Part shown: positions 2,921 through 60,869 of the stretch, one piece after another
Layout of the letters: every line of letters starts with the position of its first letter
Numbering within the stretch: the first letter of the stretch is position 1
Source: a virus
Lineage: Duplodnaviria; Caudoviricetes
Direction: 5' to 3' (one strand)
Virus record (IMG/VR): IMGVR_UViG_3300011116_001007
DNA length: 64,000 nucleotides
Translations under genes and position numbers: made by a program
The notes under the pieces: generated by a model
Databases searched by the model: none
What the model was told of the DNA's origin: nothing
The model's input: only the letters and a program-made list of their open reading frames with translations

Positions 2921-4921
2921 TTAATACGTTTTTTTAATAGAAAAAGTACCTTGTGCTTTGGCAGCACCAGCACCGCGATGTGTACCTTTGAGATTTTCAA
3001 CTCCTACCAAATCCACTGTGGCTTTGCCAAAATTTCTGCGTCTTGCAAAATAAAACAACTCCAAAAATCGATTGCGGCTCATGGTTTTGTCTTCTGGAAA
3101 GTCCAAGCGATATGTTGTGGCAGTCTTCTGTAGAGCTTGGTTGAAACTCAAATAATCCCAAATATTATAGTCCAATTCAAGATTCATTGGATATTGATTT
3201 CTGTCGTTGTATTTGATGTAGTAACCTCTTTGCAGCTTCATCAAACTGGCCAACAAATCTTTGGGTAAGTCGTAACGTTGTAAAAATATTTCCAAGAAAT
3301 CATACAGTTCATCCACACGATCTTCTTGATGCATGTTCATACTGGTTCTATGAATGATATTCCAACCGTGTATCTCCACACCAATCTTGGGATGGTTAAT
3401 TCGACCAGTGGTCATCCAGTTGGAGAAATATTGCCTTGCCTCAGCTTCTTCCTTTTTTAACCAATCGTTGGTCAGAAAGTACGCAAATAAATCTTCATAG
3501 TAGTCGTTGTAACTTAGGCCTTTGTACTTGTTGATGAATCTAGCAACCAGAGTAGCAAATCCATTGATATGGAATGTGGTCTGGAACCACGAAAAGATCT
3601 GTGCATCCAACATCACTGGGGTAGGCATATCTTTGGTGCCTGTTATGACATCAATGCTTTCTTCAATGTGTTCCACACTGTAACTGCCGGCAAAGTAATC
3701 AGTAACAGGTTGACTGGTGATCTTGAACAGTTTCTTTTGCAACAAGTTCATTTCGGCGTTTTCCAACAACTGTGCCTGGAACACAGTGATACCAGTGTGC
3801 TGATTCAAATCATACAATGCATAGAAGTTTTTCTTCCATGATTCCAGTGACTCTCCGGGCAAACCAAGTATGAGTTCTGTGTAGGCAGGAATGTTGCGCT
3901 GGTCGCACAGCTCAAACACTTCTTCTAACTTGTTCATCTCCATGTTTTTTCGACGAATGTTTTCCAGCACATCCAAATCTAAACTTTGTACACTCAGTGT
4001 CAGGCCTTGGTTGAAGCCACGTGCGTCCAACAATTTCTTCACAATGTCTATGACTTCTTTCTTTTGATTTTTAGCCCAGGCCACACTGAATGTTCTCGGA
4101 GATCCGTACTTTTCTTGCATCTCAATGATCTTGTCTGCAATCATGCCATCACGTTCGGGGAACATACCAAAGTTGGCATCTGTAATTGAGATCCAGTCAA
4201 AGTTGTGTTTGGCCATCCATTCCAGTTCCTCAAACACACGTTCTAGTTCGAACTTCTTGACCTTGTTATAGGTCAGACTGCCCCAGTCACAAAATGTGCA
4301 AGCAAATGGGCATCCACGATTGGTTTCCAAAGTACCTTGCCATGTCACGTCAGGATGTTCGGCTATCATTTGATCAAAGATGCCTGCCAAGTACGGACTT
4401 GGCACTTCTTCTAATGATTCAATGCGTTTGGCATCTTGTGTCTTTACTGCTCGACCATCTCTGTTGATCAACACACCGGATACATTTTCCCAATCTTTGG
4501 TTTCAAAATGCTGTAGCACATTTTTGAAAGTTATTTCTCCTTCGTAGCAGATCACGAGATCTATAAAAGGTTCTTTCACAAACAAGTCAGGATCGGTAAT
4601 TGCAACTTCGGGGCCACCAAACACAGTCAACACAGCAGGATTTATTTCTTTGATTCGTTTGGCCAGTGCATAATTGTACCGATGATTCCATACGTAGGTG
4701 CTGAAAGTCACAATTTGATTTTGTGCTAGACGCTGTGCCAATGGTTCTATGGCATCTCTGCGCCAGATCCAATCAGTGGCTTCAAATCGTTCGCGGATCT
4801 CTGGGTCAGCTAGACTGTAACTCCATACTACACCAGCTGAGTAGGGCAGGTAATACGCATTGAACTCTTTGGGACCTTGTTGGAAATTGGGTTGGACCCA
4901 GGCAATTTTATGTTTCATCAT
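2921..4921 (-). CDS. Cobalamin-binding (class B) radical SAM protein
   Basis: N-terminal B12-binding-like domain (FSTYVWN...VFGGPE), RGCPFACTFC CxxxCxxC motif, ELILGLPGES. Confidence 0.88.
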   Translation of the reverse strand: MMKHKIAWVQPNFQQGPKEFNAYYLPYSAGVVWSYSLADPEIRERFEATDWIWRRDAIEPLAQRLAQNQIVTFSTYVWNHRYNYALAKRIKEINPAVLTVFGGPEVAITDPDLFVKEPFIDLVICYEGEITFKNVLQHFETKDWENVSGVLINRDGRAVKTQDAKRIESLEEVPSPYLAGIFDQMIAEHPDVTWQGTLETNRGCPFACTFCDWGSLTYNKVKKFELERVFEELEWMAKHNFDWISITDANFGMFPERDGMIADKIIEMQEKYGSPRTFSVAWAKNQKKEVIDIVKKLLDARGFNQGLTLSVQSLDLDVLENIRRKNMEMNKLEEVFELCDQRNIPAYTELILGLPGESLESWKKNFYALYDLNQHTGITVFQAQLLENAEMNLLQKKLFKITSQPVTDYFAGSYSVEHIEESIDVITGTKDMPTPVMLDAQIFSWFQTTFHINGFATLVARFINKYKGLSYNDYYEDLFAYFLTNDWLKKEEAEARQYFSNWMTTGRINHPKIGVEIHGWNIIHRTSMNMHQEDRVDELYDFLEIFLQRYDLPKDLLASLMKLQRGYYIKYNDRNQYPMNLELDYNIWDYLSFNQALQKTATTYRLDFPEDKTMSRNRFLELFYFARRRNFGKATVDLVGVENLKGTHRGAGAAKAQGTFSIKKTY

Positions 4922-8887: not shown

Positions 8888-9478
8888 TTATAGTTCGATG
8901 GTTATGGTTCTTAAATCTGGATACGGCACAAACACAGGCTCTTGAGATTGATATTGTTCCAACAATTCCAATCCACGTACTGCATCTTCAATTGAAGGTT
9001 TGTAATGATATCCTATCTGGAAAGTTTTTTGTGACTGCCAGGGCACAGTATTTAGATCGCGACCATCATAACGTTGTTTTATCATGGTATTGTATGCTTT
9101 CTTGTTATCTAACAGTATAGCACCGCCATGGCCTATTTGTAAAGGTTTTGTATGTCCGAAACTCACGCATTGCATCTGTCCAGCTTGATACATGCCAGCT
9201 TCCAAGCGCCTGGCGCTGTCCCATACTCTGGTATACACAAAGTTATATTCGCCTGTCCAAGTTTGTTCAGGTTCGTCCATGTACACATAGTCAATGCCCA
9301 ATTTGTGCATGGTCATTGGTATGCTGAGATAGGTGTAAGGAGTCATTTTAAGACCGCGTACCCGATCATAACGCAAGCACAGTTCAATTGCATGGGTGCA
9401 GCAATCAGTCATGATTGCATAAGGTGCACCAGTGAATTTGGCCAGTGCTTTTTCAAACTCAAAAATTTTATCGAACAT
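8888..9478 (-). CDS. Short DegT/DnrJ/EryC1/StrS-type PLP aminotransferase
   Basis: FEKALAKFTGAPYAIMTDCCTHAI, WDSA, SFGHTK PLP-lysine, GGAIL; only 196 aa. Confidence 0.75.
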   Translation of the reverse strand: MFDKIFEFEKALAKFTGAPYAIMTDCCTHAIELCLRYDRVRGLKMTPYTYLSIPMTMHKLGIDYVYMDEPEQTWTGEYNFVYTRVWDSARRLEAGMYQAGQMQCVSFGHTKPLQIGHGGAILLDNKKAYNTMIKQRYDGRDLNTVPWQSQKTFQIGYHYKPSIEDAVRGLELLEQYQSQEPVFVPYPDLRTITIEL

Positions 9479-10412
9479 ACCAGTTCCAAGAATGTTGTAT
9501 CATATTATCCAATGTGTATTTTTGCCAATGACCGTACTGATCAAATTTATCTGAACTTGCTGTCAACACAGCTGGATCTCCGGCACGTTTAGGCCCTGAT
9601 CTAAAATTCAAAATTTGTTTTGTGATTCGTTGTGCAGCGTCAATAATTTCTAAATTACTCACACCTTGGTTGCTGCCAAGATTATACACACCAGCAGATA
9701 CCTTGGCATCCAATGCTGCAACATGTGCAGCAGCAATGTCTTCCACATGCACATAGTCTCGCACACAAGTACCATCATTGGTAGGATAGTCAATACCGTT
9801 GAGCACAAATTCTTGTCGATCTCTAATGCTTTCTAACACCCGCGAAATGATATGTGTACCACCAGGTTCACTGCCATGGCGTGCCTGGCTGTCGGCACCG
9901 CAGGCATTGAAATATCGAAATGCTACATAGTCTAGTTTATACGCCCGATGATAACTGGCCAGCACCTGTTCAATCATGCGCTTGCTTTCACCGTACGGAC
10001 TCAACGGTTCGCAAGGATCCGTTTCAGCACACGGAGTCATAGTGGGCTCACCATATACTGCTGCACTTGAACTGAAGATAAATCTGGTCTTGGGCAAAGC
10101 AGCAAGTACAAGATCCAACATGTGGATGGTCTTAATAACATTATTGTGATAGTAGTCAGATGGATATCTAATACTGGGGCCTACTAGGCTTGTGCCAGCA
10201 CAATGGATAATGGCATCAGGAACAAATTGTATCAATTTTTTACCAGCTGTGTCACTGTCAAAGTCGGCCAGCACAAACTGATTGAATACTTCTTTGAGAT
10301 GCGACGGGCACGGTCTGCGATCAATACCCAGGACCTCGTGCCCGGCATCTTTCAATGCCAGTGCAATTTGCCCACCGATGTAACCGGCCGAACCAGTGAC
10401 CACTACTTTCAT
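9468..10412 (-). CDS. galE: UDP-glucose 4-epimerase / NAD-dependent sugar epimerase
   Basis: TGSAGYIG, FSSSAAVYG, YGESK, FRYFNACGAD, RDYVHVED, RAGDP. Confidence 0.92.
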   Translation of the reverse strand: MKVVVTGSAGYIGGQIALALKDAGHEVLGIDRRPCPSHLKEVFNQFVLADFDSDTAGKKLIQFVPDAIIHCAGTSLVGPSIRYPSDYYHNNVIKTIHMLDLVLAALPKTRFIFSSSAAVYGEPTMTPCAETDPCEPLSPYGESKRMIEQVLASYHRAYKLDYVAFRYFNACGADSQARHGSEPGGTHIISRVLESIRDRQEFVLNGIDYPTNDGTCVRDYVHVEDIAAAHVAALDAKVSAGVYNLGSNQGVSNLEIIDAAQRITKQILNFRSGPKRAGDPAVLTASSDKFDQYGHWQKYTLDNMIQHSWNWYVR

Positions 10413-22600: not shown

Positions 22601-22861
22601 TTAAAGAGTTTTGCCTACTGTTTCCAAAATAGTTTCCAGCAGTTCGTGATCTTGTTTGGCCTTGCCAAATTCAGCTTTGTGTGCCAGTTTGATAGCTTTC
22701 TTTAGTACCGCTGGTTTGATTTCCAATTCTTCAGCAATGGCCTTGATGGTGTCGTTGAGGCCGCCTTGCAAGGTATCAATTTCGTGCATGACCTGCATGC
22801 CTTCGTTGATGATTTGTACAAGTTTGATTTTTTGATCGCCGTTGAAAGATTTGTCTGACAT
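22601..22861 (-). CDS. dsDNA-binding protein (T4 DsbA/DUF2312-like)
   Basis: 86 aa helical protein, LNDTIKAIAEELEIKPAVLKKAIKLAHK; AGGAG SD. Confidence 0.6.
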   Translation of the reverse strand: MSDKSFNGDQKIKLVQIINEGMQVMHEIDTLQGGLNDTIKAIAEELEIKPAVLKKAIKLAHKAEFGKAKQDHELLETILETVGKTL

Positions 22862-22882
22862 AATGTCTCCTAATAAAATGCA

Positions 22883-22911
22883 AGTATAGTTGATGTTGCA
22901 GGCAAAGTCAA
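22883..22911 (-). promoter_or_regulatory. sigma70 promoter for dsbA-like gene
   Basis: TTGACT-17 bp-TATACT. Confidence 0.75.
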
Positions 22912-22917
22912 TTGAAA

Positions 22918-23012
22918 TGTGCTCACTTTGGAGAGTTGCCGTAGCGAATGGCTCTTCTCCGGGCAGCAGCCGCCCCACACTTCGGTAACAAGGTACCGGT
23001 CCTAAGGTGTGT
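22918..23012 (-). ncRNA. Candidate structured ncRNA (three stems, possible pseudoknot)
   Basis: CGGUA/UACCG within CACAC-CUU/AAG-UGUG; GGGCGG/CUGCCC; GGAGA/UCUCC enclosing GCC/GGC; GC-rich in an AT-rich context. Confidence 0.5.
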
Positions 23013-24470
23013 TCATTTGGACAATAGTCGGCGTTGGTCGGTAATCTCAATCACTCGTTCTACCAAGTGACTGCGTTGAGCAAATGCCACTTCGTCCAGC
23101 ATGCCATGACGTGTGTATTGACGATCAATGTAGTTCCGAATGTGTCGCACGTCGTCTGCTGTGCTGGCTGTTTTTAACATGGTGTTGACAGTGTTCACAG
23201 TTTCTTTGACTCGTTGTTTCTTTTGTTTTTCTAGTGCAGCAAGGGAATCTTTGGTACGTTGTGCAATAATTTTTTTAACACCTTCTTCACCGCCATTGGC
23301 ATCCATGGTATCTTGATTGAACTTGCCAGTTTTGTAATATTTTGCTGCACCGTCGGCTCCTAGAAATATAGCAATACTTGGTGCTTCGGGGTGTTTATTG
23401 ATGTCTACCCCCAATTGATCCATGCGTTTTAAATTTTTATCATTGACAATATTAAATGCACGGTCCTGGTCTTCAGGTGTCCATTGTTTCAGTGGCTTTT
23501 GCAAGGTGGCATCTTCGCCACGTGCAGCTAAGATTGCAGCATTGGTCAACCCGTATGCACCCCATGCTGTGGTTTTTCTATTGTCTGGCCCTGCCGATCC
23601 AGTACCGGGAGCATAATGATGCCCGATGTCATAATCATCACCTGATTCACGTTTTTTTACTAAACCTGCTAGCCAATTACCTACCTGACCGGCTTTGTCT
23701 GCAGCACCTTTTTCTATACGTTGTATAACGTTAGGCTGCGATGGTGTGGGGGTGACCACATGCTTGGGCAGCACCACCGGGGGTTTTGGTTTTTTGGCAG
23801 TGACAATCTCTTCGCCGGGTGCCATAGAATCTGCAGCAGGCACCATTTCCGGCGCTGCTGCCGCTGATCGTGCCGCCGGTGCTGGGCTGCTGGGCATAAC
23901 AGATGGAGGCACAGCCCGACTACCTTTGGGAGTTAGTTCAGGAAATACATTAGAAACAAACTCGCCCGATGCAACTCGTTTTAATTTATCTACTAAAGAT
24001 GGTGCAGCAACCGGAGCAACAGCTGGCGGTAGATTTCCAGCATTTGGCCAAACTTGTACTTTGGGGTTTGCAATAGGATTTGGATCTTTCCAATTAGGCG
24101 ATCCAGACACCGGATCTCTGTCAGTACTGTGGGTGCCCATTGGTACTTGAGCAGGCACAGCAACTACTGGAGCAACAGACGGCGTTTGTATTTTTTTAGC
24201 TATTTTGGATAAATTATCACCGCGTTGTACTGCATAACTTGAGCCATCGGGCAAACTCAAAACTTGTCCGGGTTTGATAAGATTTGGATTGTTACCAATT
24301 ATGTCTTGATTGTTGAGATAGATTTGATTTACCAAATCTGGATCTATAGACCGATCTTCTTCTTCTAATGTGGGTGCTGCTGGTGCTTGTGGTGCCTTGG
24401 GTAATGCCAATGCAGGTGACCTAGGTGACATTGATGTTTCATTCACTGCAAAGAAATTTTCTAAGATCAT
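23013..24470 (-). CDS. LysM plus Pro/Ala linker plus lysozyme-like domain protein (probable virion protein)
   Basis: NPNLIKPGQVLSLP..YAVQRGDNLSKIA; RESGDDY..AWGAYGL..DQDRAF transglycosylase-like region. Confidence 0.6.
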   Translation of the reverse strand: MILENFFAVNETSMSPRSPALALPKAPQAPAAPTLEEEDRSIDPDLVNQIYLNNQDIIGNNPNLIKPGQVLSLPDGSSYAVQRGDNLSKIAKKIQTPSVAPVVAVPAQVPMGTHSTDRDPVSGSPNWKDPNPIANPKVQVWPNAGNLPPAVAPVAAPSLVDKLKRVASGEFVSNVFPELTPKGSRAVPPSVMPSSPAPAARSAAAAPEMVPAADSMAPGEEIVTAKKPKPPVVLPKHVVTPTPSQPNVIQRIEKGAADKAGQVGNWLAGLVKKRESGDDYDIGHHYAPGTGSAGPDNRKTTAWGAYGLTNAAILAARGEDATLQKPLKQWTPEDQDRAFNIVNDKNLKRMDQLGVDINKHPEAPSIAIFLGADGAAKYYKTGKFNQDTMDANGGEEGVKKIIAQRTKDSLAALEKQKKQRVKETVNTVNTMLKTASTADDVRHIRNYIDRQYTRHGMLDEVAFAQRSHLVERVIEITDQRRLLSK

Positions 24471-24471
24471 T

Positions 24472-25359
24472 TTATTTTTCTTCTAAGTAATCTTGATTTG
24501 AATCCGCAGGTTGACGATTCTGAAACAGTCTCACTGCTATATCAGCATGTTCAAGGTTTGGGAACCGTGTGGGCAAGCTGCGACCCGCATGACGTATTTC
24601 AAATCCGTTTTGTTCGTCACCCCAGCATTCCAATGTTTTGCCATTTTCCATAGCGTAGGTTCTAACTGGTGCATTTTCTTTTACTGGCAATAACGTATTG
24701 GGATTGATCCCTGCTTTTTTTGACTGCTCAGCTGCTTGCAACTCTGCAGGTGACGGCGGCGCCGGAATACCTTTTGCAGCGTTTGTAATTTGTTCATCGT
24801 CGGGCAACCAACTGCCAGTTTTGTACTTGTCTCTTGCGGCCTGCACAGCCATGCTAGGAAAACTCAACGGTGGATATATTCCTGCACCAGAAATACCTGC
24901 ACCAACGTAGTCGCCTAGATTTGCTCTGTTTATAGCATCTTGTGCTTGTAATCCAGCACCAATCACTGGCAGACTTTTTCCAAGTGCTTTGGCACCAACA
25001 GACATTGCACCAGCTTCTTCAACTTCGCCGTGCTCTATTGCGTCCAAGGCTTTGTTTTTTAGTTCGTTGCTGACACGACCTTTCTTTTCCAAGTGGTCAA
25101 GATATTGTGTGAGATCTTTTTTGACTCGACTGACCATGTCTTCTTCAATCTCAGCCATGGCTTCTTCCAAAGCAGTGCCGCGTCGCTCGCCCACCATGTA
25201 TCCATCCATGGGATCAGCAGGATCTGTTTGGCTGCCCAACACACGAATATGCTTGGGTTTGAACAATGCAGGCAGTTGCGGAACTTTCTGTTGTGCAGGG
25301 GACAGGCGTCCTTCCACAGTGGCCAGCCGGTCCAGTATGTGTCTTATGTCGTTGCTCAT
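24472..25359 (-). CDS. Modular hypothetical protein (probable virion internal protein)
   Basis: 295 aa; acidic xxE motifs; Gly/Ala-rich middle insert. Confidence 0.55.
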   Translation of the reverse strand: MSNDIRHILDRLATVEGRLSPAQQKVPQLPALFKPKHIRVLGSQTDPADPMDGYMVGERRGTALEEAMAEIEEDMVSRVKKDLTQYLDHLEKKGRVSNELKNKALDAIEHGEVEEAGAMSVGAKALGKSLPVIGAGLQAQDAINRANLGDYVGAGISGAGIYPPLSFPSMAVQAARDKYKTGSWLPDDEQITNAAKGIPAPPSPAELQAAEQSKKAGINPNTLLPVKENAPVRTYAMENGKTLECWGDEQNGFEIRHAGRSLPTRFPNLEHADIAVRLFQNRQPADSNQDYLEEK

Positions 25360-25796
25360 GCCCGTTCAACTTTTAAATAACTTAACAATTGCCAACGATA
25401 CTTGCCGTGAGCACTGAGTCGTTCTGCTATAAAGTTGGCGATACCTTGCTCGTTTTCTTCGGTGGCAGCAGCAAAGCAACTGTTGAGAATATCAAGCATC
25501 TGATCATTGTTGGCATGCAGTTCCTCCAGCATGAGTCGAGCACGTGGAATTTTTGTCTGTCCTGCAATCTGTGTGAGTTCTGTGAAACGTTCAAAACTGG
25601 CTGGAGAGTATTCGCCCAGGTAGCGTATGTATTCTGCAGTGGGATCAATGGCCGAATAAGCATCTTCGTAAATGCCCTGAAAGAATGTATGCAGCTCTCC
25701 AAAGTCTGGCCCTTCCACATTCCAGTGAAAACCGTGGGCCTTGATGTAGTAAGCAAAATTACTTGCTAGGAGAATTTTTAAACTGTCTGCGAGCAT
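25356..25796 (-). CDS. dps: Dps/ferritin-like DNA-protection protein
   Basis: HGFHWNVEGPDFGELHTFF..YED..D..AEYIR, HGKYRWQL. Confidence 0.88.
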   Translation of the reverse strand: MLADSLKILLASNFAYYIKAHGFHWNVEGPDFGELHTFFQGIYEDAYSAIDPTAEYIRYLGEYSPASFERFTELTQIAGQTKIPRARLMLEELHANNDQMLDILNSCFAAATEENEQGIANFIAERLSAHGKYRWQLLSYLKVERA

Positions 25797-25983
25797 GCTG
25801 GGTCCTTTTGTATTCTTTTGGAGTATTCGGAGTAGGGTCCGAGTCCGTGATATATTTACCAGAAAGCATGGATCCACCTGATCTTGTTTGCATGCCCATG
25901 CCCATGCTTACTGGTGCTATACTGCCACTTGAAGTGCCGCCTGCACTGGCACCATCTTCCATTATGAATTCTTTGGCTCTCAT
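25759..25983 (-). CDS. Small CTS-motif protein (MRAKEFIME)
   Basis: Start at second Met; Gly/Ser-rich. Confidence 0.55.
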   Translation of the reverse strand: MRAKEFIMEDGASAGGTSSGSIAPVSMGMGMQTRSGGSMLSGKYITDSDPTPNTPKEYKRTQHARRQFKNSPSK

Positions 25984-27577: not shown

Positions 27578-27876
27578 TAAAATATCCTCAACGAAACTTC
27601 GTCACTGCCCACACCAACGATGACACCTGGACCGTCAATCACACGAAAATTGGTCACACGTATGCGCCCTGCTTCTCGGTCCACTGTTTCGTAACGTATG
27701 GGATATGTGCCCGTGGGTGCCATGATCTGATGTGTTTCTTCAAGATAAGTGTCAGTCCAGATCCAATTGCGCTCAGTGAACAATTCGTCATTGACGTATG
27801 CTCGATATCGCAGATTAGCACCCGGATACCGTTTGGCACTGACATCAACAGTAAATTGTATGAATTTAGGCTCCAT
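27577..27876 (-). CDS. Hypothetical late protein
   Basis: 99 aa; TAAATA at 27881-27886 upstream. Confidence 0.55.
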   Translation of the reverse strand: MEPKFIQFTVDVSAKRYPGANLRYRAYVNDELFTERNWIWTDTYLEETHQIMAPTGTYPIRYETVDREAGRIRVTNFRVIDGPGVIVGVGSDEVSLRIF

Positions 27877-27880
27877 AATT

Positions 27881-27908
27881 TATTTAGCAAAATATGCACC
27901 TATAAATA
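27881..27908. promoter_or_regulatory. Divergent T4-type late promoters (TAAATA minus 27881-27886; TATAAATA plus 27901-27908)
   Basis: Exact T4 late consensus TATAAATA 5 nt before ATG 27914; the same hexamer precedes many other ORFs (e.g. 35093, 36174, 37669, 38874, 43309, 44266, 45068, 46051, 52133, 60875, 60986, 61806). Confidence 0.7.
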
Positions 27909-27913
27909 TCTAT

Positions 27914-28954
27914 ATGCTTAAATTAGTTGACGTGCGGCAGATTCAAATTGAACTCACCACAAGATGCAACGCTCGTTGCCCCATGTGCATGCGAAACTAT
28001 CGAGGTATTGACTACAATTCGGGATATCCTGTGTGCGAACTCGGCCTTGCTGATTTCAAAAAAATACTCACACCTGCAATATTGACTGGAATCATGAGAT
28101 CAGACCCGCCAGTGAATGGAAGAGTTCCGATCAACTACAACTTTCAAGGCATCAATTTCAATGGCAATCTTGGCGATTTTTCCAACGCAAAAGATGGTGC
28201 AGAGATTGTGGAGTATCTGGTAGAGCACGGAGTTAATGTTCGTATCAATACCAATGGCAGTACCAGAACTCCAGATTGGTGGGCAAGATTGGCCCGTCCC
28301 GGAGTCTCAATAGGATTTGCATTAGATGGCCTGGCTGACACCCATCATCTGTACAGGCAGGACACAGACTGGCACAAAATAATAGCAAATGCCCAGGCGT
28401 TTATCAACGCAGGTGGGCATGCAGAATGGAGATTTGCGCCATTTGATCACAATCGCCATCAACAAGATGCATGCGAGAAATTATCTCGCGTGATGGGATT
28501 TGCTAGATTTGAAAACATATATGATGGCCGTGATCGCGGGCCAGTGTTCAATCGAGATCAAACATTCAGCCATCATATCGGCGAACCTGTTGGTCCAGCT
28601 CCGGATGTGCAGCCCATGTTGGAAAGTCATATCACATGGTATGATTCACGCACATTCCGCAGCGAAAAAGATTCCACCACATTGAATTTGCAATGCACAC
28701 ACAAAATGAACAGAGAGATATACATAGCAGCAGATGGATCTGTGTATCCTTGTTGCTATTTGGGGTTCTATCCAAAAACGATGAATTATCCAGGCAACAA
28801 AGAACTGGCACCCATGGTGCAACAAAACAATGCATTGGAACACACACTGGAGCATTGCCTGGAATGGTTTGAATCCATTGAACAGTCCTGGGCCAAAGAC
28901 AGTATCAGTCAAGGCCGAACATATCAATGCATAACTACATGTAATCGTGTATGA
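27914..28954 (+). CDS. Radical SAM/SPASM-twitch protein
   Basis: CNARCPMC, NGNLGD, NTNGS, YIAADGSVYPCCY; start moved to ATG 27914. Confidence 0.82.
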   Translation: MLKLVDVRQIQIELTTRCNARCPMCMRNYRGIDYNSGYPVCELGLADFKKILTPAILTGIMRSDPPVNGRVPINYNFQGINFNGNLGDFSNAKDGAEIVEYLVEHGVNVRINTNGSTRTPDWWARLARPGVSIGFALDGLADTHHLYRQDTDWHKIIANAQAFINAGGHAEWRFAPFDHNRHQQDACEKLSRVMGFARFENIYDGRDRGPVFNRDQTFSHHIGEPVGPAPDVQPMLESHITWYDSRTFRSEKDSTTLNLQCTHKMNREIYIAADGSVYPCCYLGFYPKTMNYPGNKELAPMVQQNNALEHTLEHCLEWFESIEQSWAKDSISQGRTYQCITTCNRV

Positions 28955-33099: not shown

Positions 33100-35085
33100 T
33101 TATTTTTTGCGGATGCCAGCTAAATTTTGCATGCGATTGATATCTTCGTTAAAATGCTGTGATTGCATTTTGGCCAGTTCGGCTGCAGGGACATTCTTTT
33201 GAAATGTTGTTGTGGGTGTACCATTCACATCCTGCTTGTGCATGTAATCTCCGGTGCCGGTCGCAGGATTTGTCGCTATAGTAACATCGCTGTAGTTACG
33301 GTTGGCCTGACCGTTTTTGGCTGCGGTGGTATCACGTGAGATTGTGCTTATGTTTGTGTTTAGATCTGGGCGAGTAGGCGGCGTTGCCTGTTTGTAAGAA
33401 TTGGTTGGTGCATGGTATTGCATCGTGGAGCCATCCTGCATGGGCATGGTTGCACTGCCCCATTTGAATCCGTCATCCATGGTGTCACCCGTGTCAGTTT
33501 CTTTTACTGAAGTTTTCCTTGGCTGACTGGCAGGTGTTCCGGCATTATATCCACCTTGACGATATCGATTCGCAATACCTGACAAGGTATCTCCTTTGTC
33601 AACCACAGCAAAAGTACCATTGGGCAGTTTGATTTGCTGCCCAGGATAGATACGATCAGGATTGGCTATTTTATTTGCTTGAGCTATGTCTTGCCACAAT
33701 GGTGCTGTTGTTTTTGATGCGGTTGTACCACCGGCCGCCGGTGCATTTTGTTTTGCTGCCCATGCTCTAGCACGATCTATTGTGGCTTGATCAATGCGAC
33801 CTTTACTTCCACCAGTGATTTCGCCATTATCACCGGCACCGTTGCCCATGGTCATGCTCATACGCACTGGCTGTGTTTTACCAGTGGATGATACTGCGTT
33901 GCCTGCTGGCACTGAGTTAGCTGCTGGTTCAGACTGGCGGTACGCTGGATTTATTACATATTGCCACGTAGTGCCGGCAGGCAGTCTGTTAGGATTGCTT
34001 GGGTCAGCTGCTGCACCAGATGCACCATCTCCAGCTTTTTTGCTATACTCGCCATTGACTTGCCCTGCTGGCAATATCACACTTGGCGGTGGGTATTCTG
34101 TGTTACTATTACTGCCGCCTGTGTTGGGTACTGAAAATTCTTCGCCATTGGCACCCTTATAAACGGTTGGCGCCGCAAATGGGTCTGGTAGATTGTTCAT
34201 CTTTGTTTGCCAACGGTTGATGTGGTTTCTTACGGCTGCTTCTTCTTCACTGTCCAGCGGTTTTATTTCCTGACCAGGCTTGAGGTTTTTGCCAAAGCGG
34301 TCCCAATTTTTCATGATATCCGGGCCATCATCGGTGTTGTTGGACATCGACCCAGCAACATCAGCAGGAGAAGGATAAGCATCGGCGGTTTCCATGGGCT
34401 GCATCATGTTATCATAATTGGCATTGGGGTTGGCTGTTGCTGGGCGTGTGTCTAGTCTAGGAGTTTCTTTGCCAGTTCCTGTCGCTGGCCTGCTGTCTAA
34501 GTAATTGGGTTTTTGTGTCAACGGTGTTGTGTGCATTTGGGGCGTTTCATTGCCTGTTCCTGTTGCCACTGGATGATTGATATAATCAGTTTCTGCTCGA
34601 CCTACCAGCTTTGTGAGTGCGTTGAGATTTTTTGTAAGTTCAGGATTTTGAAATGCTTTCATGCCTTTGTTAAAAGTTCCAGACACATCCACATCGCCTT
34701 TGGGATTCAAAGCCATTGAATTTTTAACTGCGGCCGGATCAGGAGCAGCCATGCCGCGTTCAGCAGCAGTTGAATACATGTTCTTGACATAATCTGTAGT
34801 GGGCATTGATCCTAGACTGCCAGGTGGCAACTCATTGGCGTCTTCCGCTAAATTCTGCTGACCATACATGTCAAGAATTTGATCAACGTAAAAACTATAA
34901 AAGCCGCGGCGGCCGTTGTATTCTCTGTCTCCCAACACTCGCTTTAGTGCCAGCACAGCGTCACTCACTGTTGGACCTTGCATCACTCGTAATGCGTCAG
35001 TGACAAGTGAGTCAACTCTTTGCGAGTTTTCTGTCACATTGCGTGCAGATCTTTTGGGGTTGGTAAAAAAATCGTTGATGATCAT
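33100..35085 (-). CDS. Modular LysM-containing probable virion protein
   Basis: IANPDRIYPGQQIKLP..VVDKGDTLSGIA; low-complexity linkers; C-terminal RMQNLAGI; late promoter upstream. Confidence 0.6.
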   Translation of the reverse strand: MIINDFFTNPKRSARNVTENSQRVDSLVTDALRVMQGPTVSDAVLALKRVLGDREYNGRRGFYSFYVDQILDMYGQQNLAEDANELPPGSLGSMPTTDYVKNMYSTAAERGMAAPDPAAVKNSMALNPKGDVDVSGTFNKGMKAFQNPELTKNLNALTKLVGRAETDYINHPVATGTGNETPQMHTTPLTQKPNYLDSRPATGTGKETPRLDTRPATANPNANYDNMMQPMETADAYPSPADVAGSMSNNTDDGPDIMKNWDRFGKNLKPGQEIKPLDSEEEAAVRNHINRWQTKMNNLPDPFAAPTVYKGANGEEFSVPNTGGSNSNTEYPPPSVILPAGQVNGEYSKKAGDGASGAAADPSNPNRLPAGTTWQYVINPAYRQSEPAANSVPAGNAVSSTGKTQPVRMSMTMGNGAGDNGEITGGSKGRIDQATIDRARAWAAKQNAPAAGGTTASKTTAPLWQDIAQANKIANPDRIYPGQQIKLPNGTFAVVDKGDTLSGIANRYRQGGYNAGTPASQPRKTSVKETDTGDTMDDGFKWGSATMPMQDGSTMQYHAPTNSYKQATPPTRPDLNTNISTISRDTTAAKNGQANRNYSDVTIATNPATGTGDYMHKQDVNGTPTTTFQKNVPAAELAKMQSQHFNEDINRMQNLAGIRKK

Positions 35086-38911: not shown

Positions 38912-41900
38912 TTACTGGGCTTGACGCACACTGTAGTCAGCAGGGTTGAGTGTTATGCCAGTGTCGTTGCTGGTTTGTTGTACCCATTGACGACCTTCTG
39001 CCCAGGCCGCAGCTTGTGTGGCAGCATCCAACGGGAACATGCTCACTCCATCACTACGTCGATACACTTCCCACTGGGGCGCGGCTGCTGGCTGCGATGT
39101 ATACTGTGCAACATCTGGCTCAATGTCTTGCACTCCAGGAATTGGAGTAGGTGTCCGACGGTTAGCAGCATGTTCTGCATCAGCGGCCATGCTGGCTGCT
39201 GCTATTGCATTATAGCGTTGACGAGCTAGATCCAAGGTGCTGCCTGGGATGGGTGCTCGACGAACACCAAACGCTGCTGTGGCCTGCTGCGAATTTAATG
39301 TATGCGGACCCATGCTTCTATATTGATTCAAGAATTCTAAAGCTGCTGCATCATTGGCCGCTTGGAATGTTTCTAAGGGGCTGCTGTCCTCTCGGTCGTA
39401 AATCTCGTAAGTGACTGTGTCTGCATCAGCGGGTACTTCAGCAGGCACAGGAACCACTTCAAACGGTCCGCGAGCAGCCATATTAAGTGGCGGTAGCCAA
39501 TGGGCTTGCACCCATGCTAGTGCTGCTGCGTTGGCATCTGCTTGCACATTTCTATTCCAGAAAGTATGCACAACATCTCCGTCGTCGGCAACAATGTTCC
39601 ATTGCACACTACCGGCTTCGGGTGCTGATGCAGGTGCTGCAAACTGCGTGGTATCCACAATCATGTAATCAGCAGCATTTGCATTTTCTCGAGCAGCCCA
39701 GGCCGACATCACAGAACGAAGTTGGGCTTGGCTATAGCCGTCCCCTAGGGTAAATCTAAACAAGTAGTCTGGTGCAGGTCCTGATGTTCCGCTGCCGTAG
39801 CTGTAGACTCGAGGATCATCACGTCGCACTATGGCCAGTTGACCGTTGGGGTCATTGGGTCTGCCACGGCCTTGGGGATGTGATGCTGTGGTACTGGCTC
39901 CTGCTGCGGGCTCATCCAGTCTGGTCACAGTCAGTGCATCATCATGAAATCTCCAGTTGGGCTGCTGTTTTATGGCCTGCTTCTTGGCATCTACAGGGTC
40001 AGCGGCAATCACTTCTACCACGCCGCCACCCAATTCAGGCTTCAATGACACTCTCCATCGATGACCATTCACAATGTCCTCACCAGACTTCTTGGCCTTG
40101 CGGTCGGCTTGTGCTTGCCGCACAAAACTCTTTAGCGCAGCAGCAGGTAGTTCGCCTGCGGCATACTTGGCAAATACAGCCAGGGGATCTTTTTCATCTT
40201 TGGGTGCCAATATCTTGTATAGTTTTTTCAGATACTCTTGTCTATACGCTTCAGGATCTAATGCAGCACTCATGGCCACTGTGAATCTCATGAGAGTGTT
40301 TTCAATCTTGTCAAAGTTGTCGTCCAACCAGTCTCCGCCGGGGCTACGAAACTCAATGTGCCCATCCTTGGTGTTGATACTGGTGTATTTTTCTGTTGAG
40401 CCCGAGTGTATGGCTTTACTAGCCAAAGCACCCATGTGCCCTTTCATCTTGTCCAACAAATATTTTGCTTCATAAGGCCGTTGACGCACATGATCACGCA
40501 CTTTGCCCATGGCACTCTTGGCGTAGGAGTTACCTGCCCGCCCAAACTGCTCTAACACATATTCGTCGCCCATCAGCAGGGCCAGCTTTACAAAATCCAG
40601 TCGATTCTGGCTGTAATTGGGCACTGAGATATTGATGTGTAGCCCAGTAGAATCATTGGTGTAGCAGCCCATGCGATTGGCCCAGGCTTTGACCTTGTTC
40701 AAGTCACTCATGATGTCATCTATAGGCAATGGTGGGCTCACAAACTCCAGGCCTGAATCTTGTGGGTCATCCGGTTCCAAACTGCCATCGGGTTCTACCA
40801 CATAGAAGTTTTTGCCCGGCGCAGGACGCTCCACACTGCTGGAATGATACCCTGAAGATGCCTTTACAGGACGACCCACCGCCCGACTGAAATCGTCTGC
40901 TATATCTTCAACGCTGGTGCCACCAGCAAGACTGCTGGTATAGTGTGGCCAATGTATAATTCCATTATAACGATGATAGATATCACTCATGTGGCCCAGG
41001 CCAGAGTCACCCAACCATTCTTCAAAATTGTCATTTTCGTAGAACTCATCGCGGGACTGTTCCAATGCATCATCATAGAAAGGTTGTAGTTGTTCAGTAA
41101 CAATCATGTCCGCAGCCAGTTGATATTCTTTTTTACCAAGCTCGTCCTCTGATTCTAGATCCAACAACTCTCTGATGCTATCTTCGTCAACATTTTCTCG
41201 GATGTAATCGTAGATGAATGTTTTAGCATCTGAATCCCAGCGAGTATCAAACTGTTCCACTTGCCAGTCGCCGTAATCATCCAGCATGCGATCAACCAAC
41301 TCCTGGGCATTTCTGCGACCGTTGTAGTCACCATCATAGAAAAAATCTTGAATATCTCTAGGGCTGCTGGCACGTTCATCAGAATCAAAGTCGGGTTCTA
41401 GTTCATCATCTTCGGATGAAGTGTTGGGCACAATCATTTCAAATTCCATACCAGCCAGGGCACCTGTCTTGGCTGCTTCTCGACGCAGATTCTTGCCACC
41501 CATGTTGATTTCAAACAGATCCTGATCTTCAAACAATCTCAATTCTTGTCGCAGGCTTGCTACCAATTTATTTTCAGCCACATTGTAGGTAGGGTCAGTT
41601 TTTTGACGCTTCATGCCTTTGGGCTGGTTAGGATCAACAGGATCAATGTCAGTGGTTGATAACCCTAATTTTTCTAACTTATTGATGTACTTGTGTTCAG
41701 TATCTTCGTCACCAAAGCTCACAATAGTGCTGGGTGGCCCTTTGCCAAATTCGCTGGGATCAGCACGATCCAGATTGGCAATGTGCTTGCCCAACTTGTA
41801 CCAGTCATACACGTCACTCACATCTACTCGTACTGTGCCTTTGGGCATGGTGGGTTTGAATTCAGGCCCCAATGGCTCATTGAGGTCACGATACTTGCCC

Positions 41901-43300
41901 TGACCCTGCGACGGTTGCGGCATAGAACTTTCACGTAGATTCACAGACTTGATCAACAACTTGGGCTCTCCGTTGGGCCCTGTTTGCAATGCCATCTTGT
42001 TGGCTTCTCGGCCTGTTTGTCCCGGACGCACATCCACACTCAAGGCCATGGCATACTGTGGCATGGCCGCTTCCTTTTTGTTCTTGGGAATGTATCCTGA
42101 CGCACCTTCGCCCAGGGATTCTGCGGCAAAGTATTCAGGATGTGACGCAGCAAAATCTCGCATGATGATGCCAGCTCTGGCATTGGCATCATTTTCGTAT
42201 TCACTGCCAGTTTCTCCAGCATCCAGTGGCAGGCCACCTTGCGTCTGATGTTGATCACAATGCACCAGTTCATGTGCTATGGTGCGGAACACATCCAGGA
42301 TATGGCGATTGGGCAAGCTCACATTGAGAGTGTTTGATTCTGGCTCATAACGTCCAAAGCTGTGATTGCCTTCACTCCATTCAGGATCTGTGTGTATGAC
42401 TATTTTGGGAGCAGGATCAATGCCCAGTTCCGTGACCACATGCTGGATAAAATCATTCACTGCCTGATTGTCCTCGTCGCCTTTTTCACTCAAGAACATT
42501 CGGGTACTGGCACTGACCCCATCTGGAGTTATTGTGACATCTTCTGCGATGCGATGGCCAAACCCATAGGTCACACGACCTTTTTCTCTGTTCTTTTCCA
42601 CTAGACTCATGGCATGATCTTGTGCTGCCACGTGAGCATCTTTCAGCAGTCGGATGCAGCCTTGATCGCGCAGCACTTTGAACGTGATGTTTTCGCAACC
42701 AAATTCCCCATGCTGTTCCAGCCCAATTTGGCGCATGGCTTTGATCTTGTTCCACAGGGTGGACATCATATCAGCATTGCCAGACTCAACAGCAGCGTGT
42801 ATTCTAGCGTCTAGATCAGCTGCTTTGTCACGCACACATGAGTCATCAATCTGTGCTCGTCGGCGGCGCGGCACTTGTATCCATTTGCCATCCTTGACTG
42901 AATAAATGCCCTGACTCACATGCGGCTGGCCTGCAGGTTGCACATACAATTCCACATCAGCACCGCCAATGGTCAAATTGTGTTCGTCGTTGTATTGGTA
43001 TTTTTTAGCGTTGAACAGTTCCTGATACACAGGATCATCAGGCATGTCCACTATCAAATGTAGATCAATGTCGCTGTGGTCAGTATAGTTGTATGCTGCA
43101 TTTGACCCCGACAGTGTGATGTCTTGCACTCGGAGATTGTCCACTCCCAAGAATTCACGGAAGTCTTCTGCAATTGCCAGCAGTTTGTCACGAACATCTG
43201 GCAGCAGATGTTCATTTGAACCCCACAACCGACGGTTAAGTCGATTATGGTATTTTACAGTGTCGCTCAGGCGGAATTGATCTAGTTCATTGAAGTTCAT
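38912..43300 (-). CDS. 1462-aa polyvalent protein: Pol-beta-type nucleotidyltransferase, HExxH zincin, amidoligase (COOH-NH2 ligase), C-terminal repeats
   Basis: GSNAAYNYTDHSDIDLH; AHELVH; GMEFEM..EPDGSL..GLEFVSPP..STGLHINIS..IEFRSPGG. Confidence 0.75.
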   Translation of the reverse strand: MNFNELDQFRLSDTVKYHNRLNRRLWGSNEHLLPDVRDKLLAIAEDFREFLGVDNLRVQDITLSGSNAAYNYTDHSDIDLHLIVDMPDDPVYQELFNAKKYQYNDEHNLTIGGADVELYVQPAGQPHVSQGIYSVKDGKWIQVPRRRRAQIDDSCVRDKAADLDARIHAAVESGNADMMSTLWNKIKAMRQIGLEQHGEFGCENITFKVLRDQGCIRLLKDAHVAAQDHAMSLVEKNREKGRVTYGFGHRIAEDVTITPDGVSASTRMFLSEKGDEDNQAVNDFIQHVVTELGIDPAPKIVIHTDPEWSEGNHSFGRYEPESNTLNVSLPNRHILDVFRTIAHELVHCDQHQTQGGLPLDAGETGSEYENDANARAGIIMRDFAASHPEYFAAESLGEGASGYIPKNKKEAAMPQYAMALSVDVRPGQTGREANKMALQTGPNGEPKLLIKSVNLRESSMPQPSQGQGKYRDLNEPLGPEFKPTMPKGTVRVDVSDVYDWYKLGKHIANLDRADPSEFGKGPPSTIVSFGDEDTEHKYINKLEKLGLSTTDIDPVDPNQPKGMKRQKTDPTYNVAENKLVASLRQELRLFEDQDLFEINMGGKNLRREAAKTGALAGMEFEMIVPNTSSEDDELEPDFDSDERASSPRDIQDFFYDGDYNGRRNAQELVDRMLDDYGDWQVEQFDTRWDSDAKTFIYDYIRENVDEDSIRELLDLESEDELGKKEYQLAADMIVTEQLQPFYDDALEQSRDEFYENDNFEEWLGDSGLGHMSDIYHRYNGIIHWPHYTSSLAGGTSVEDIADDFSRAVGRPVKASSGYHSSSVERPAPGKNFYVVEPDGSLEPDDPQDSGLEFVSPPLPIDDIMSDLNKVKAWANRMGCYTNDSTGLHINISVPNYSQNRLDFVKLALLMGDEYVLEQFGRAGNSYAKSAMGKVRDHVRQRPYEAKYLLDKMKGHMGALASKAIHSGSTEKYTSINTKDGHIEFRSPGGDWLDDNFDKIENTLMRFTVAMSAALDPEAYRQEYLKKLYKILAPKDEKDPLAVFAKYAAGELPAAALKSFVRQAQADRKAKKSGEDIVNGHRWRVSLKPELGGGVVEVIAADPVDAKKQAIKQQPNWRFHDDALTVTRLDEPAAGASTTASHPQGRGRPNDPNGQLAIVRRDDPRVYSYGSGTSGPAPDYLFRFTLGDGYSQAQLRSVMSAWAARENANAADYMIVDTTQFAAPASAPEAGSVQWNIVADDGDVVHTFWNRNVQADANAAALAWVQAHWLPPLNMAARGPFEVVPVPAEVPADADTVTYEIYDREDSSPLETFQAANDAAALEFLNQYRSMGPHTLNSQQATAAFGVRRAPIPGSTLDLARQRYNAIAAASMAADAEHAANRRTPTPIPGVQDIEPDVAQYTSQPAAAPQWEVYRRSDGVSMFPLDAATQAAAWAEGRQWVQQTSNDTGITLNPADYSVRQAQ

Positions 43301-46049: not shown

Positions 46050-46691
46050 TTATTTAGCCTGTATTGGCACAGTCTTGCGAACAATTCCCGGCAGAACGAG
46101 ATTCAACATCAGCGCATCATTGATGTCATGATGATCGATAAAATTCCAGTCATTGGTGTAAAAATGCTTGTAATGAAACATCCGCCCGTCATCGCCAATC
46201 AATCGAGACTGCAAGCCCGGCGTGATCCTAAAATAGTCCGGGCGGTTGGCAAAAAATTGTATAAATCTATCGCGCTCAATGTCGTTGAAATATTTGCCTC
46301 TGAGATAAGTTCTGTATTGATGTTGTGTTTTTTCAAGCACAACCACATCCTTTGCTCGATCAACCACACATTGATTGTACTTGGCTGTTCTTGTTATGTA
46401 GGACAAGGCCGCCAAGTCTTTTAACAGTGTTAAATTATTGGTGTAAACATATACCCAACTGCCGTAGATGATAGATTTATGTGCATCTTTGTCGGCTGCC
46501 AACAGCATGGCCACTTCGCCCACATCAGAATACTCGGGCATACGCTCCACAAAGTCTTTTATATCTTTTGTATTGGAATATTTGAATAATCTACGCCATC
46601 TGCCAACTTCTTCCAATCTAAAATCTATGGCATACTCGTACTGATCATAGTACAAACTGCCTCGGGACACGTATTTGAAGTCAATCATCAA
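46050..46691 (-). CDS. Hypothetical protein
   Basis: 213 aa, coupled to clpA stop. Confidence 0.55.
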   Translation of the reverse strand: MMIDFKYVSRGSLYYDQYEYAIDFRLEEVGRWRRLFKYSNTKDIKDFVERMPEYSDVGEVAMLLAADKDAHKSIIYGSWVYVYTNNLTLLKDLAALSYITRTAKYNQCVVDRAKDVVVLEKTQHQYRTYLRGKYFNDIERDRFIQFFANRPDYFRITPGLQSRLIGDDGRMFHYKHFYTNDWNFIDHHDINDALMLNLVLPGIVRKTVPIQAK

Positions 46692-55234: not shown

Positions 55235-55848
55235 ATCACTGTTACCCTTACGTCTGACATTGCGTAATTTTGTTTATATTCTGCTGGCGGCGGTTGTAGA
55301 TTTAGCATGTTGCACAGCATGATATTGTCCAATGGATTGCGCCCGGGATATTTCATTGCAGCATTGACTATGCCGCTATTCTGTTGTTTGATGATGGTGG
55401 CCATTGTTTTTAAATTTTTGTAGTGGCCGTGATACAGTGGATAAGTGATGTCAAAATGCCCGCACTTGACCCACCAGCCCAAACACGCATCGTCGGGTCG
55501 ATGTACCAGTACAACAGGACAATCAGGCCAACATGCCCGTAAAAAATCAATGTTGTTGGCAAATATATGACTTTTGATAATACGCACACCAGTACCAGTG
55601 AATGCACTGTTGAATATATCCTCCAGTGCATCTTTACTCAGTGCAAACAAGTCAGGAGGCAAATCAAACTCCATGCCAGGATCAAAGTATGCACCCAAGT
55701 GCATTAACTCCGTCTGCCCACTGGCATCGTGATGATAAGTCCTGGCATCACTGTAATCACTGTGATCCAGGCTGGGGCTGTAATAGATGTTCTTAACTAC
55801 GCTGCTCCATTTTGAGCCAGGAGCGCCGGCTACAAAGATATATTTCAT
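55231..55848 (-). CDS. P-loop/sulfotransferase-like protein
   Basis: FVAGAPGSKWS, IIKSH, VLVHRP. Confidence 0.5.
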   Translation of the reverse strand: MKYIFVAGAPGSKWSSVVKNIYYSPSLDHSDYSDARTYHHDASGQTELMHLGAYFDPGMEFDLPPDLFALSKDALEDIFNSAFTGTGVRIIKSHIFANNIDFLRACWPDCPVVLVHRPDDACLGWWVKCGHFDITYPLYHGHYKNLKTMATIIKQQNSGIVNAAMKYPGRNPLDNIMLCNMLNLQPPPAEYKQNYAMSDVRVTVI

Positions 55849-60290: not shown

Positions 60291-60869
60291 TTATTGTGGT
60301 TGTGGTTCATTGGAGTTGAGTTCATCTTGTGCTTTCTGACTTTCCTGGTCACTTTGTACAGCATCTTTGTCTAGATCCTCGTCATAAGCAGCATCCAGTT
60401 CGTCCAGATCAATGTCCTGATCTTCCATTTCAATTGAGCCAGTGCGTATGTCATTCATCAAGGCCTTGGGCATGGTGATTGACACCAGCCATACATCTTT
60501 GGTCATTAGTTTGGCTTTGTGTGTGCCTGGAATGTAATCTGAAGGATCAGTGATCTTCACCGGGATCTTTATTTCTTTGCGTTGATATTCCACTTTGCAA
60601 TCAAACGGCAGCAGCCGCCTGGCACCACGTGGATCAGGCATGAGTTTTTCGGGCCACATGAATGTGCATTCCACACGATATTTGCCAATTTCTGGACCAG
60701 CCACAAGTTCGCCGATTTCCCAGTTTTTGAATGCGTACAAATCCACTTCGTCCAGCACACGCTCAAAGTCCAACAGTGTGGTCAAACTGCCGTCGCTCAT
60801 GTAGATGTCGCGGATGTTGTCGGCCACTTGCCAGTAGTCGGTGTGGTCTTTGAAGAGTTCTTTGTCCAT
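60291..60869 (-). CDS. Hypothetical acidic late protein
   Basis: 192 aa; TAAATA at 60875-60880. Confidence 0.6.
   Translation of the reverse strand: MDKELFKDHTDYWQVADNIRDIYMSDGSLTTLLDFERVLDEVDLYAFKNWEIGELVAGPEIGKYRVECTFMWPEKLMPDPRGARRLLPFDCKVEYQRKEIKIPVKITDPSDYIPGTHKAKLMTKDVWLVSITMPKALMNDIRTGSIEMEDQDIDLDELDAAYDEDLDKDAVQSDQESQKAQDELNSNEPQPQ

Follow-up and report, generated by a model that had tools for sequence, protein, structure and literature searches.

We identified a structured and widespread RNA family of an uncultured jumbo-phage clade, and its invariant unpaired blocks are antisense to universal functional centers of ribosomal RNA (rRNA). The family was recognized from an element in a 64,000-nt stretch of virus DNA (Duplodnaviria; Caudoviricetes; IMG/VR record IMGVR_UViG_3300011116_001007), hereafter called the window. 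The element occupies positions 22921..23012 on the minus strand and consists of P1 with its loop L1 and an additional hairpin P1a, P2, P3 with its loop L3, and a 3' tail. Members of the family correspond to the gene-sense strand and lie at the 3' end of a transcription unit. We propose, with a probability of roughly 0.4, that this RNA may act by base-pairing with host rRNA.

A structured RNA family with covarying stems

Coordinates refer to the window, and the whole element, its stems, and its loops are given for the minus strand. The element begins right behind the UGA stop codon (23013..23015) of an upstream open reading frame (ORF) of 485 aa (23013-24470), whose LysM match is weak and partial (Pfam E = 3.4e-5). 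The GA of this UGA overlaps the family 5' consensus (G)AAC. An earlier reading made from the sequence alone had placed an RNA with three stems at this stop codon. The sequence that it quoted was found there, directly after 23015-23013, and RNAfold yielded P1, P2, and P3 as it had described.

The P1 domain (22976..23011) is closed by the outer helix CACAC (23011-23007)/GUGUG (22980-22976) with UU/AA, and encloses the L1 block ACCUUAGGACCG (22997..23008; family core CCUUAGGAC) together with the optional hairpin P1a, CGGUA/UACCG (22998-22983), which was predicted by RNAfold. The P2 hairpin GGGCGG/CUGCCC (22961..22975) contains three covarying pairs and an invariant C-G pair that closes the invariant loop GGCUGCU; its loop block is GCGGCUGCUG (22973-22964). 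The P3 hairpin (22930..22960) is formed by GGAGA/UCUCC (22960-22956 with 22934-22930), a 3x3 internal loop, and GCC/GGC, and presents the L3 loop AUUCGCUAC (22949-22941). The unpaired 3' tail AAAGUGAGC (22921..22929) ends the element and includes the invariant core AGUGAGC (22927-22921).

The minimum free energy of the element was -29.4 kcal/mol (z = -0.52), and 54 of 200 shuffled sequences folded equally well in RNAfold. Because the fold energy alone is unremarkable and not beyond chance, the structure was established through covariation among homologues. A pseudoknot between UUCGCU and AGUGAG, which had also been suggested, is possible but weak (-4.3 kcal/mol); it lies beyond the covariation test because both of its sides are invariant.

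On the window, the covariance model R1 matched positions 22976-22921 with 61.2 bits (E = 1.3e-15), and the same model revealed no further copies in these 64 kb. The sequence GGCGGCUGCUGCC at 60607-60619 on the minus strand repeats the P2 hairpin inside a coding region (11.8 bits, E = 0.12 with the covariance model). This copy is likely coincidental, and none of the other blocks is near it.

The element had been regarded as an orphan, which turned out to be wrong. Three pattern scans of viral contigs revealed at least 244 distinct elements of 63-116 nt in at least 287 loci, both totals being lower bounds. The second scan left L3 and the tail free, and the third left L1 and P2 free. Relatives of the LysM protein in IMG/VR bear the same element downstream, and the element is far more conserved than the coding region or the flanks. 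Stem changes in these relatives are compensated: CGGUA/UACCG is replaced by CGCAA/UUGCG in P1a (locus L001), GGGCGG/CUGCCC by AGGCGG/CUGCCU in P2, and GGAGA/UCUCC by GGGAA/UUCCC in P3. The sequence-only reading had named a collection of homologues as one check, and the homologues collected here have strongly covarying stems.

Covariation was examined in the alignment A3, which holds 39 members without gaps and covers P2, P3, and the tail; the register and architecture of P1 vary too much for a single fixed-register alignment. Positions of P2 and P3 were paired in 86.5% of cells, compared with 59.2% in shuffles. The covariation score of these stems was 0.722, compared with 0.246 after shuffling (0 of 500 shuffles reached the observed value), and partners slid along the alignment gave at most 0.154. 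Double changes were observed in 11 of the 12 P2/P3 pairs, including all eight pairs of P3. Among the 244 listed sequences, the three variable P2 pairs comprised 710 Watson-Crick, 17 G-U, and 0 A-C combinations. A count over P2 and P3 together gave 28 G-U and 10 A-C. The P2 counts of 17 G-U and 0 A-C indicate that the RNA is the gene-sense strand.

Every family member has P1, in many sequences, such as ACUCG/CGAGU, UUUGG/CCAGA, CAUCC/GGAUG, and CACACUA/UAGUGUG. It occurs as a plain hairpin, with the extra hairpin P1a, or with part of L1 pulled into the stem. P1a is missing from short forms of the family.

Invariant unpaired blocks antisense to rRNA

The invariant blocks were compared with the rRNAs of the Escherichia coli MG1655 rrnH operon. 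Reverse-complemented, the L1 block (A)CCUUAGGACCG is identical to 23S 1920-1930(31), and over its full length in the window it is antisense to 1920-1931, the 3' strand of helix 69 (H69) and its junction to H70. Directly next to the L1 target lies 23S 1930-1937, to which the segment UUCGCUAC within L3 is antisense; with the usual closing C, UUCGCUACC, or UUCGCUAC(C), this segment is the reverse complement of 1929-1937 and abuts the L1 target with a 2-nt overlap. In 16S, the match lies in the 530 loop, with 519-527(8) as the reverse complement of the P2 loop (G)CGGCUGCUG and 519-528 as that of the loop block of the window. The tail core AGUGAGC matches 23S 1099-1105 in antisense, in the region of the GTPase-associated center. 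None of the invariant blocks occurs in sense orientation in the E. coli rrnH operon. The duplex energies predicted for the blocks were -19.2, -16.8, -13.5, and -9.7 kcal/mol.

Significance was computed on the family-invariant cores only, because chance antisense matches of 9-11 nt are common. Composition-preserving shuffles gave probabilities of 0.022, 0.020, 0.133, and 0.174 for the four invariant cores, and their product gives a joint probability of about 1e-5, before the contiguity of the L1 and L3 targets is counted. In a distant phylum, 36 of 81 genomes contain the exact 18-mer target of 23S, and a control pattern had 0 matches. Two Bacteroidota operons likewise contain the 16S motif and GCUCACU. 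Conserved accessible seeds thus face a conserved target, as in a trans-acting antisense RNA, and no convincing targets were found on phage mRNAs within the window.

A further complementarity was observed in P1a (22983-22998), which holds UACCUUGUUAC, exactly antisense over 11 nt to 16S 1497-1507 (the region of the '1492R' primer). The P1a loop of most family members is ACUUGUUAC or another sequence, and UACCUUGUUAC is not conserved. This match is probably due to chance.

The variation of the loops supports selection on the rRNA target rather than on a particular loop. When the tail was left free in the second scan, only AGUGAGC stayed invariant and the preceding AA varied, so that the invariant part was exactly the 7 nt that match 23S. 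When L1 and P2 were left free in the third scan, CGGCUGCUG was present in all 105 true members listed, and L1 in the members listed read CCUUAGGAC(C/G) or CCUUAGGAAC. In 95 of the 244 listed members, UA (usually CUA) precedes L1 and yields CUACCUUAGGAC(C), which is antisense to 23S 1921/2-1933 over 12-13 contiguous nt and joins in one stretch what the canonical L3 and L1 cover apart. An A-to-G change in L1, seen in three distinct forms, preserves a G-U pair with U1923. In a degenerate second copy, L1 is lost and L3 is UCGCUACCUU, antisense to 23S 1927-1936. This second copy belongs to a complete jumbo-phage genome of 352 kb (locus L130:1470-1560 on the plus strand, equal to G001:C1:76963-77015); its P2 and tail are intact, and CCUUAAACUAC stands in place of L1.

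According to our proposal, P1, P2, and P3 would form a scaffold that displays short invariant antisense sequences. The loops would pair with 23S H69/H70 at 1920-1937 (split over L1 and L3) and with the 16S 530 loop at 519-527/8, and the tail with 23S 1099-1105. Because these segments are paired or buried in the mature 70S ribosome, the likeliest partner would be nascent or unassembled rRNA, or rRNA in free subunits. Ribosomes or their assembly might then be bound, sequestered, inhibited, or remodeled during infection. From these sequence comparisons we infer a discrete RNA species, its pairing with rRNA in vivo, and an effect of that pairing.

Several observations weigh against pairing with rRNA. 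A 99-nt sequence often has a chance antisense match of 9-11 nt to the 4.5 kb of rRNA, and the antisense content of the whole element is not significant alone, since 1392 of 2000 shuffles contained a 9-mer match and 120 of 2000 an 11-mer match. Such chance matches being common, the argument depends on the coincidence with the invariant blocks, among which the 7-nt match of the tail is by itself at chance level (P ~0.17). The second commonest type of L3, type iv (GGG-AGUCGUG-CCC), was found in 93 of the 244 listed members, and for neither type iv nor type v was an rRNA complement of at least 8 nt found in E. coli or in the two Bacteroidota operons. L3 of type vi (ACGCCAUUC) matches E. coli 23S 1968-1976 in antisense, which is weak evidence because the two Bacteroidota operons lack that target. 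In several P1 variants, part of L1 (CCUUAG) sits in a stem, and rare single variants of the P2 loop (G to A, G to U, and C to A) would mismatch 16S. L3 is modular, and not every conserved loop fits pairing with rRNA. The target segments are base-paired or buried in mature ribosomes, so that pairing needs nascent rRNA or helix invasion, and we know of no bacterial or phage precedent for such an RNA.

In members of type iv (e.g., loci L140, L211, and L266), which make up about 38% of the listed family, L3 is replaced by a longer conserved module, UAUG-GGAGUCGUGCCC-CGGAAUGG, on a covarying outer stem, and this module has no rRNA complement.

Genomic context and alternative explanations

In 104 non-redundant contexts, the stop codon of a same-strand ORF was located -12 to +7 nt from the element in 85, bar four at +16 or +49, and in 18 of those 85 the stop codon is a UAG inside L1. 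The next same-strand ORF downstream begins at a median distance of 26 nt. The flanking proteins fall into 64 clusters, the commonest being the LysM-domain protein upstream (15) and a DsbA-like protein downstream (15). Among near-complete records of about 350 kb, one of 354 kb (98% complete) has a single copy and one of 352 kb, which has terminal repeats, has two; fragments have one. The variety of flanking gene families and the single copy favor a trans-acting gene over a regulator of one neighbor. An ATAAATA late-like motif directly upstream of the element was present in only 13 of 255 contexts, which indicates that the RNA is mostly co-transcribed with the upstream gene.

The DNA 3' of the tail takes one of two forms, either a TTGACA-17-TATAAT promoter with a Shine-Dalgarno sequence and the DsbA-like gene, or a T4-late-like (G)ATAAATAC/TAATTAC followed by an ATG a few nt on. 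In the window, a sigma70-like promoter, TTGACT-17-TATACT (22883..22911, minus strand), lies outside the RNA, marks its 3' limit, and serves an 86-aa DsbA-like gene (22601..22861, minus strand; a DNA-binding or late-transcription regulator) with an AGGAG Shine-Dalgarno sequence, the commonest downstream neighbor of the family. This arrangement of promoter and DsbA-like gene recurs in about 20 related contexts. The statement in the sequence-only reading that the element is not the leader of the DsbA-like gene agrees with our data, because the promoter intervenes and the DNA past AAAGUGAGC is unrelated in loci L001-L003. A 149-aa ORF initiated by TTG (22601-23050, minus strand) that runs through the element into the DsbA-like gene was rejected as spurious; this gene truly starts at the ATG at 22861, which follows the promoter and the Shine-Dalgarno sequence.

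Comparison with known RNA classes agreed with the earlier assignment to an unrecognized class, as the stems covary strongly and no Rfam, tRNA, or transfer-messenger RNA (tmRNA) match was obtained. The Rfam search that had been suggested as a check gave no match to any Rfam 15 family on the strand of the element. At gathering thresholds, Rfam 15 had no match in the window or in 10 related loci (97 kb), and at E <= 10 no match overlapped the element on its strand. ARAGORN found no tRNA or tmRNA genes in the 64-kb window. The absence of a U-tract, from which a simple terminator had been dismissed, was borne out: the tail continues as AAAGUGAGC-ACA, a terminator scan found no site at the element, and no family member listed has a U-run after the tail. 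The literature searched contained no description of the motif, and two large surveys of structured or non-coding RNAs make no mention of it in their text.

Other identities were rejected on the same material. A riboswitch or 5' leader was ruled out because the downstream genes belong to many unrelated clusters and a promoter lies between. Read-through or a recoded extension of the upstream ORF was ruled out by indels of 1 and 2 nt and by compensatory stem changes; a coding extension is excluded because the indels of homologues are not multiples of three. No invariant C (RUGAUGA) or D (CUGA) boxes are present in the alignments A2 and A3, as a C/D-box guide RNA would have, and CUGA is sporadic, within the covarying P3 stem. 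An IS110-type bridge RNA or transposon guide RNA was rejected as well, there being no recurrent recombinase neighbor among the 64 clusters; the only resemblance to a bridge RNA is the 2-nt overlap of the two 23S guide blocks.

The same evidence bears on other functions of the element. Small ribozymes typically have a compact multi-stem fold with invariant unpaired nucleotides, orphan classes such as pistol, hatchet, and twister-sister occur frequently in the DNA of phages, and the element is located at the 3' end of an ORF, ahead of the next promoter. It could be a novel self-cleaving ribozyme, or an RNase-processing or 3'-end-stabilizing element, that cuts or protects the upstream mRNA just past the stop codon. 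The invariant loops would then be tertiary contacts or an active site, for example a pseudoknot between L3 and the tail, and by inspection L3 variants retain at least four potential pairs with the tail AGUGA. The match to rRNA would be incidental, so that four rRNA-antisense blocks, two of them with contiguous 23S targets, would be left unexplained (joint P ~1e-5 or lower). We regard this possibility as unlikely, given also that no Rfam ribozyme similarity appears even at E <= 10, that the pseudoknot is weak (-4.3 kcal/mol) and without covariation, and that a general mRNA-processing signal would be unusual at one copy per 350 kb. The complementarity to rRNA would be explained likewise by an element that tethers ribosomes in cis, similar to the termination upstream ribosome-binding site (TURBS) of caliciviruses and the 3' cap-independent translation elements (3' CITEs) of plant viruses. 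Such an element would hold terminating ribosomes or subunits for re-initiation at the next ORF or for reuse of the upstream ORF. Its start 0-12 nt from the stop codon fits this function, as does the next ATG within 10-30 nt at many loci, with no obvious Shine-Dalgarno sequence. Tethering in cis nevertheless appears quite unlikely, because the next start lies anywhere from 1 to more than 200 nt away, a promoter-like ATAAATA (T4-late-like) or TTGACA-17-TATAAT precedes the next gene in at least 39 of the 104 contexts, and the commonest neighbor, the DsbA-like gene, is equipped with a promoter of its own and a strong Shine-Dalgarno sequence. The widely varying flanking gene families and the one copy per genome speak against it too.

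The position between a stop codon and the next promoter, and its recurrence at the junction of the LysM protein, the DsbA-like gene, and DNA polymerase, would also suit a factor-dependent terminator or insulator, or a protein-binding scaffold of a ribonucleoprotein, whose loops are read by a phage or host protein and mark a transcription-unit boundary (e.g., between structural genes and a replication/DsbA module). We hold this to be very unlikely, since the element lacks a U-tract, occurs in one or two copies compared with hundreds of transcription-unit boundaries per genome, and is not fixed in position (64 flanking-gene clusters), and since the coincidence of rRNA antisense blocks would remain unexplained. 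The plus strand reads true rRNA sequence, namely CGGTCCTAAGGT, CAGCAGCCGC, GTAGCGAA, and GCTCACT, and might act as a DNA-level element or give an RNA whose rRNA-identical segments are a decoy for rRNA-binding proteins, modification enzymes, or ribotoxins. This explanation is hardly credible: the wobble statistics of the stems fit the gene-sense strand only (17 G-U and 0 A-C in P2; 28 G-U versus 10 A-C in P2 and P3), the element is co-oriented with the flanking genes, and the blocks are short, permuted, and separated and mimic no contiguous rRNA site.

Pairing of the RNA with host rRNA is the reading that we develop here. In its specific form, which we put forward tentatively, a multivalent 'anti-rRNA' RNA of giant freshwater phages may capture nascent rRNA or free subunits and block, redirect, or mark the assembly or function of host ribosomes, or it may guide an rRNA-modifying or rRNA-cleaving activity. 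To our knowledge, no phage or bacterial RNA of this multivalent kind has been described. If the proposal is true, this RNA would be the first non-coding RNA from a phage or bacterium to act directly on rRNA at the decoding (530 loop), inter-subunit bridge (H69/H70), and factor-binding centers, and a new viral route to take over or shut down translation at sequences that no host can mutate. Because the predicted targets are identical in E. coli, the idea is directly testable in laboratory E. coli, and culture of the phage is unnecessary. The family is among the larger unannotated structured-RNA families of viral metagenomes (at least 244 variants with clean covariation) and is suited to inclusion in Rfam, to structure determination, and to use as a clade marker.

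Among sequencing runs, this DNA occurs in river, freshwater, and viral metagenomes. The DNA polymerase of the window is of T4 type and shares 41-50% identity with the enzymes of Sinorhizobium phage Phosso, Agrobacterium phage Atu_ph07, Vibrio phage 2.275.O, and Serratia phage BF. The freshwater jumbo phages with the family are distant relatives of Atu_ph07, Phosso, and BF. These nearest cultured jumbo phages have no copy of the RNA (E > 0.4), and a BLASTN search of 50,697 phage records with 801 nt and with a 95-nt consensus-like member gave no match. Among bacterial genomes there was a single match, NZ_JBBAKG010000001.1 (locus L131), a 183-kb contig of a Haliscomenobacter metagenome-assembled genome (MAG) that lacks a 23S gene. 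On this contig, a T4-type DNA polymerase (phrog_262, E = 2.8e-197) comes after a canonical copy of the RNA. The contig seems to be jumbo-phage DNA that was assigned to the bacterial MAG, which is possibly a hint of the host or else a case of mis-binning.

Some neighboring features were recorded in addition. The DsbA-like genes of the window and of about 20 loci (85-88 aa, phrog_639/phrog_12534) are always preceded by a sigma70 promoter close to consensus (TTGACA-17-TATAAT) and by a strong AGGAG. Phosso, Vibrio phage 2.275.O, and Serratia phage BF have a small gene at the same position, just upstream of DNA polymerase, annotated as 'DNA binding protein' in Phosso only. At loci L005, L008, L013, L017, L025, L044, L064, L066, and others, 0-20 nt past the element, many downstream genes start 3-8 nt after a motif that resembles a T4 late promoter (ATAAATAC, TAATTAC, or TATATAC), without a Shine-Dalgarno sequence, a pattern that suggests leaderless late mRNAs in this phage clade. 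The window also encodes accessory proteins typical of huge phages: radical-SAM proteins at 2921-4921 (with a B12-binding domain), 27749-28954 (SPASM), and 62656-63690, a ClpB-like AAA+ protein (46688-48949), a TctC-family receptor (55845-56804), an NAD-dependent epimerase (9468-10412), a 1462-aa protein with an amidoligase domain (38912-43300), and a second LysM protein (33100-35085). A 173-aa ORF at 25356-25877 looks ferritin/Dps-like by eye.

Comparison with known RNA systems

Pistol, hatchet, twister-sister, and hammerhead ribozymes are likewise RNAs of 50-100 nt with several stems, invariant unpaired nucleotides, and a possible pseudoknot, located in intergenic regions of phages. The phage element has no sequence or structure match in Rfam 15 to these classes, whereas they have no known complementarity to rRNA. 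The intergenic RNase III hairpins of phage T7 are also structured RNAs right after stop codons in a polycistronic transcript, where they define or stabilize 3' ends. However, the T7 sites are single long irregular duplexes, about ten per genome, whereas the phage element has three short hairpins with sequence-invariant loops and is present once per genome. Bacterial trans-acting antisense small RNAs, including those derived from 3' UTRs (untranslated regions), share with the element short conserved seeds on a stem-loop scaffold and co-transcription with the upstream ORF. In contrast to them, the phage element lacks a Rho-independent terminator and U-tail, and its predicted targets are rRNA, not mRNA.

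With respect to its predicted function, the element would most resemble rRNA-pairing RNAs that are known only outside bacteria, namely U3 and C/D-box small nucleolar RNAs (snoRNAs), TURBS, and 3' elements like those of barley yellow dwarf virus. Motif 1 of calicivirus TURBS and the 3' CITE of the barley yellow dwarf virus type are likewise viral, are located by a stop codon or in the 3' UTR, and carry a conserved loop complementary to small-subunit rRNA. They act in cis in eukaryotic translation on one 18S site, whereas three or four sites in both subunits are predicted for the phage family, whose members occur once per 350-kb genome among variable neighbors and often with a promoter before the next gene. 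Compared with the snoRNAs, the phage element comes from a bacterial virus and has no conserved C/D or H/ACA boxes or known partner proteins; in Rfam, a C/D match appeared only below threshold, elsewhere and on the opposite strand. The phage element presents its antisense blocks in hairpin loops, with the order of the two 23S blocks permuted. U3 and the C/D-box snoRNAs and small RNAs of eukaryotes and archaea are likewise small structured RNAs with several short antisense elements to conserved rRNA, and the eukaryotic equivalents of the 530 loop and of the H69-H71 region are snoRNA targets too.

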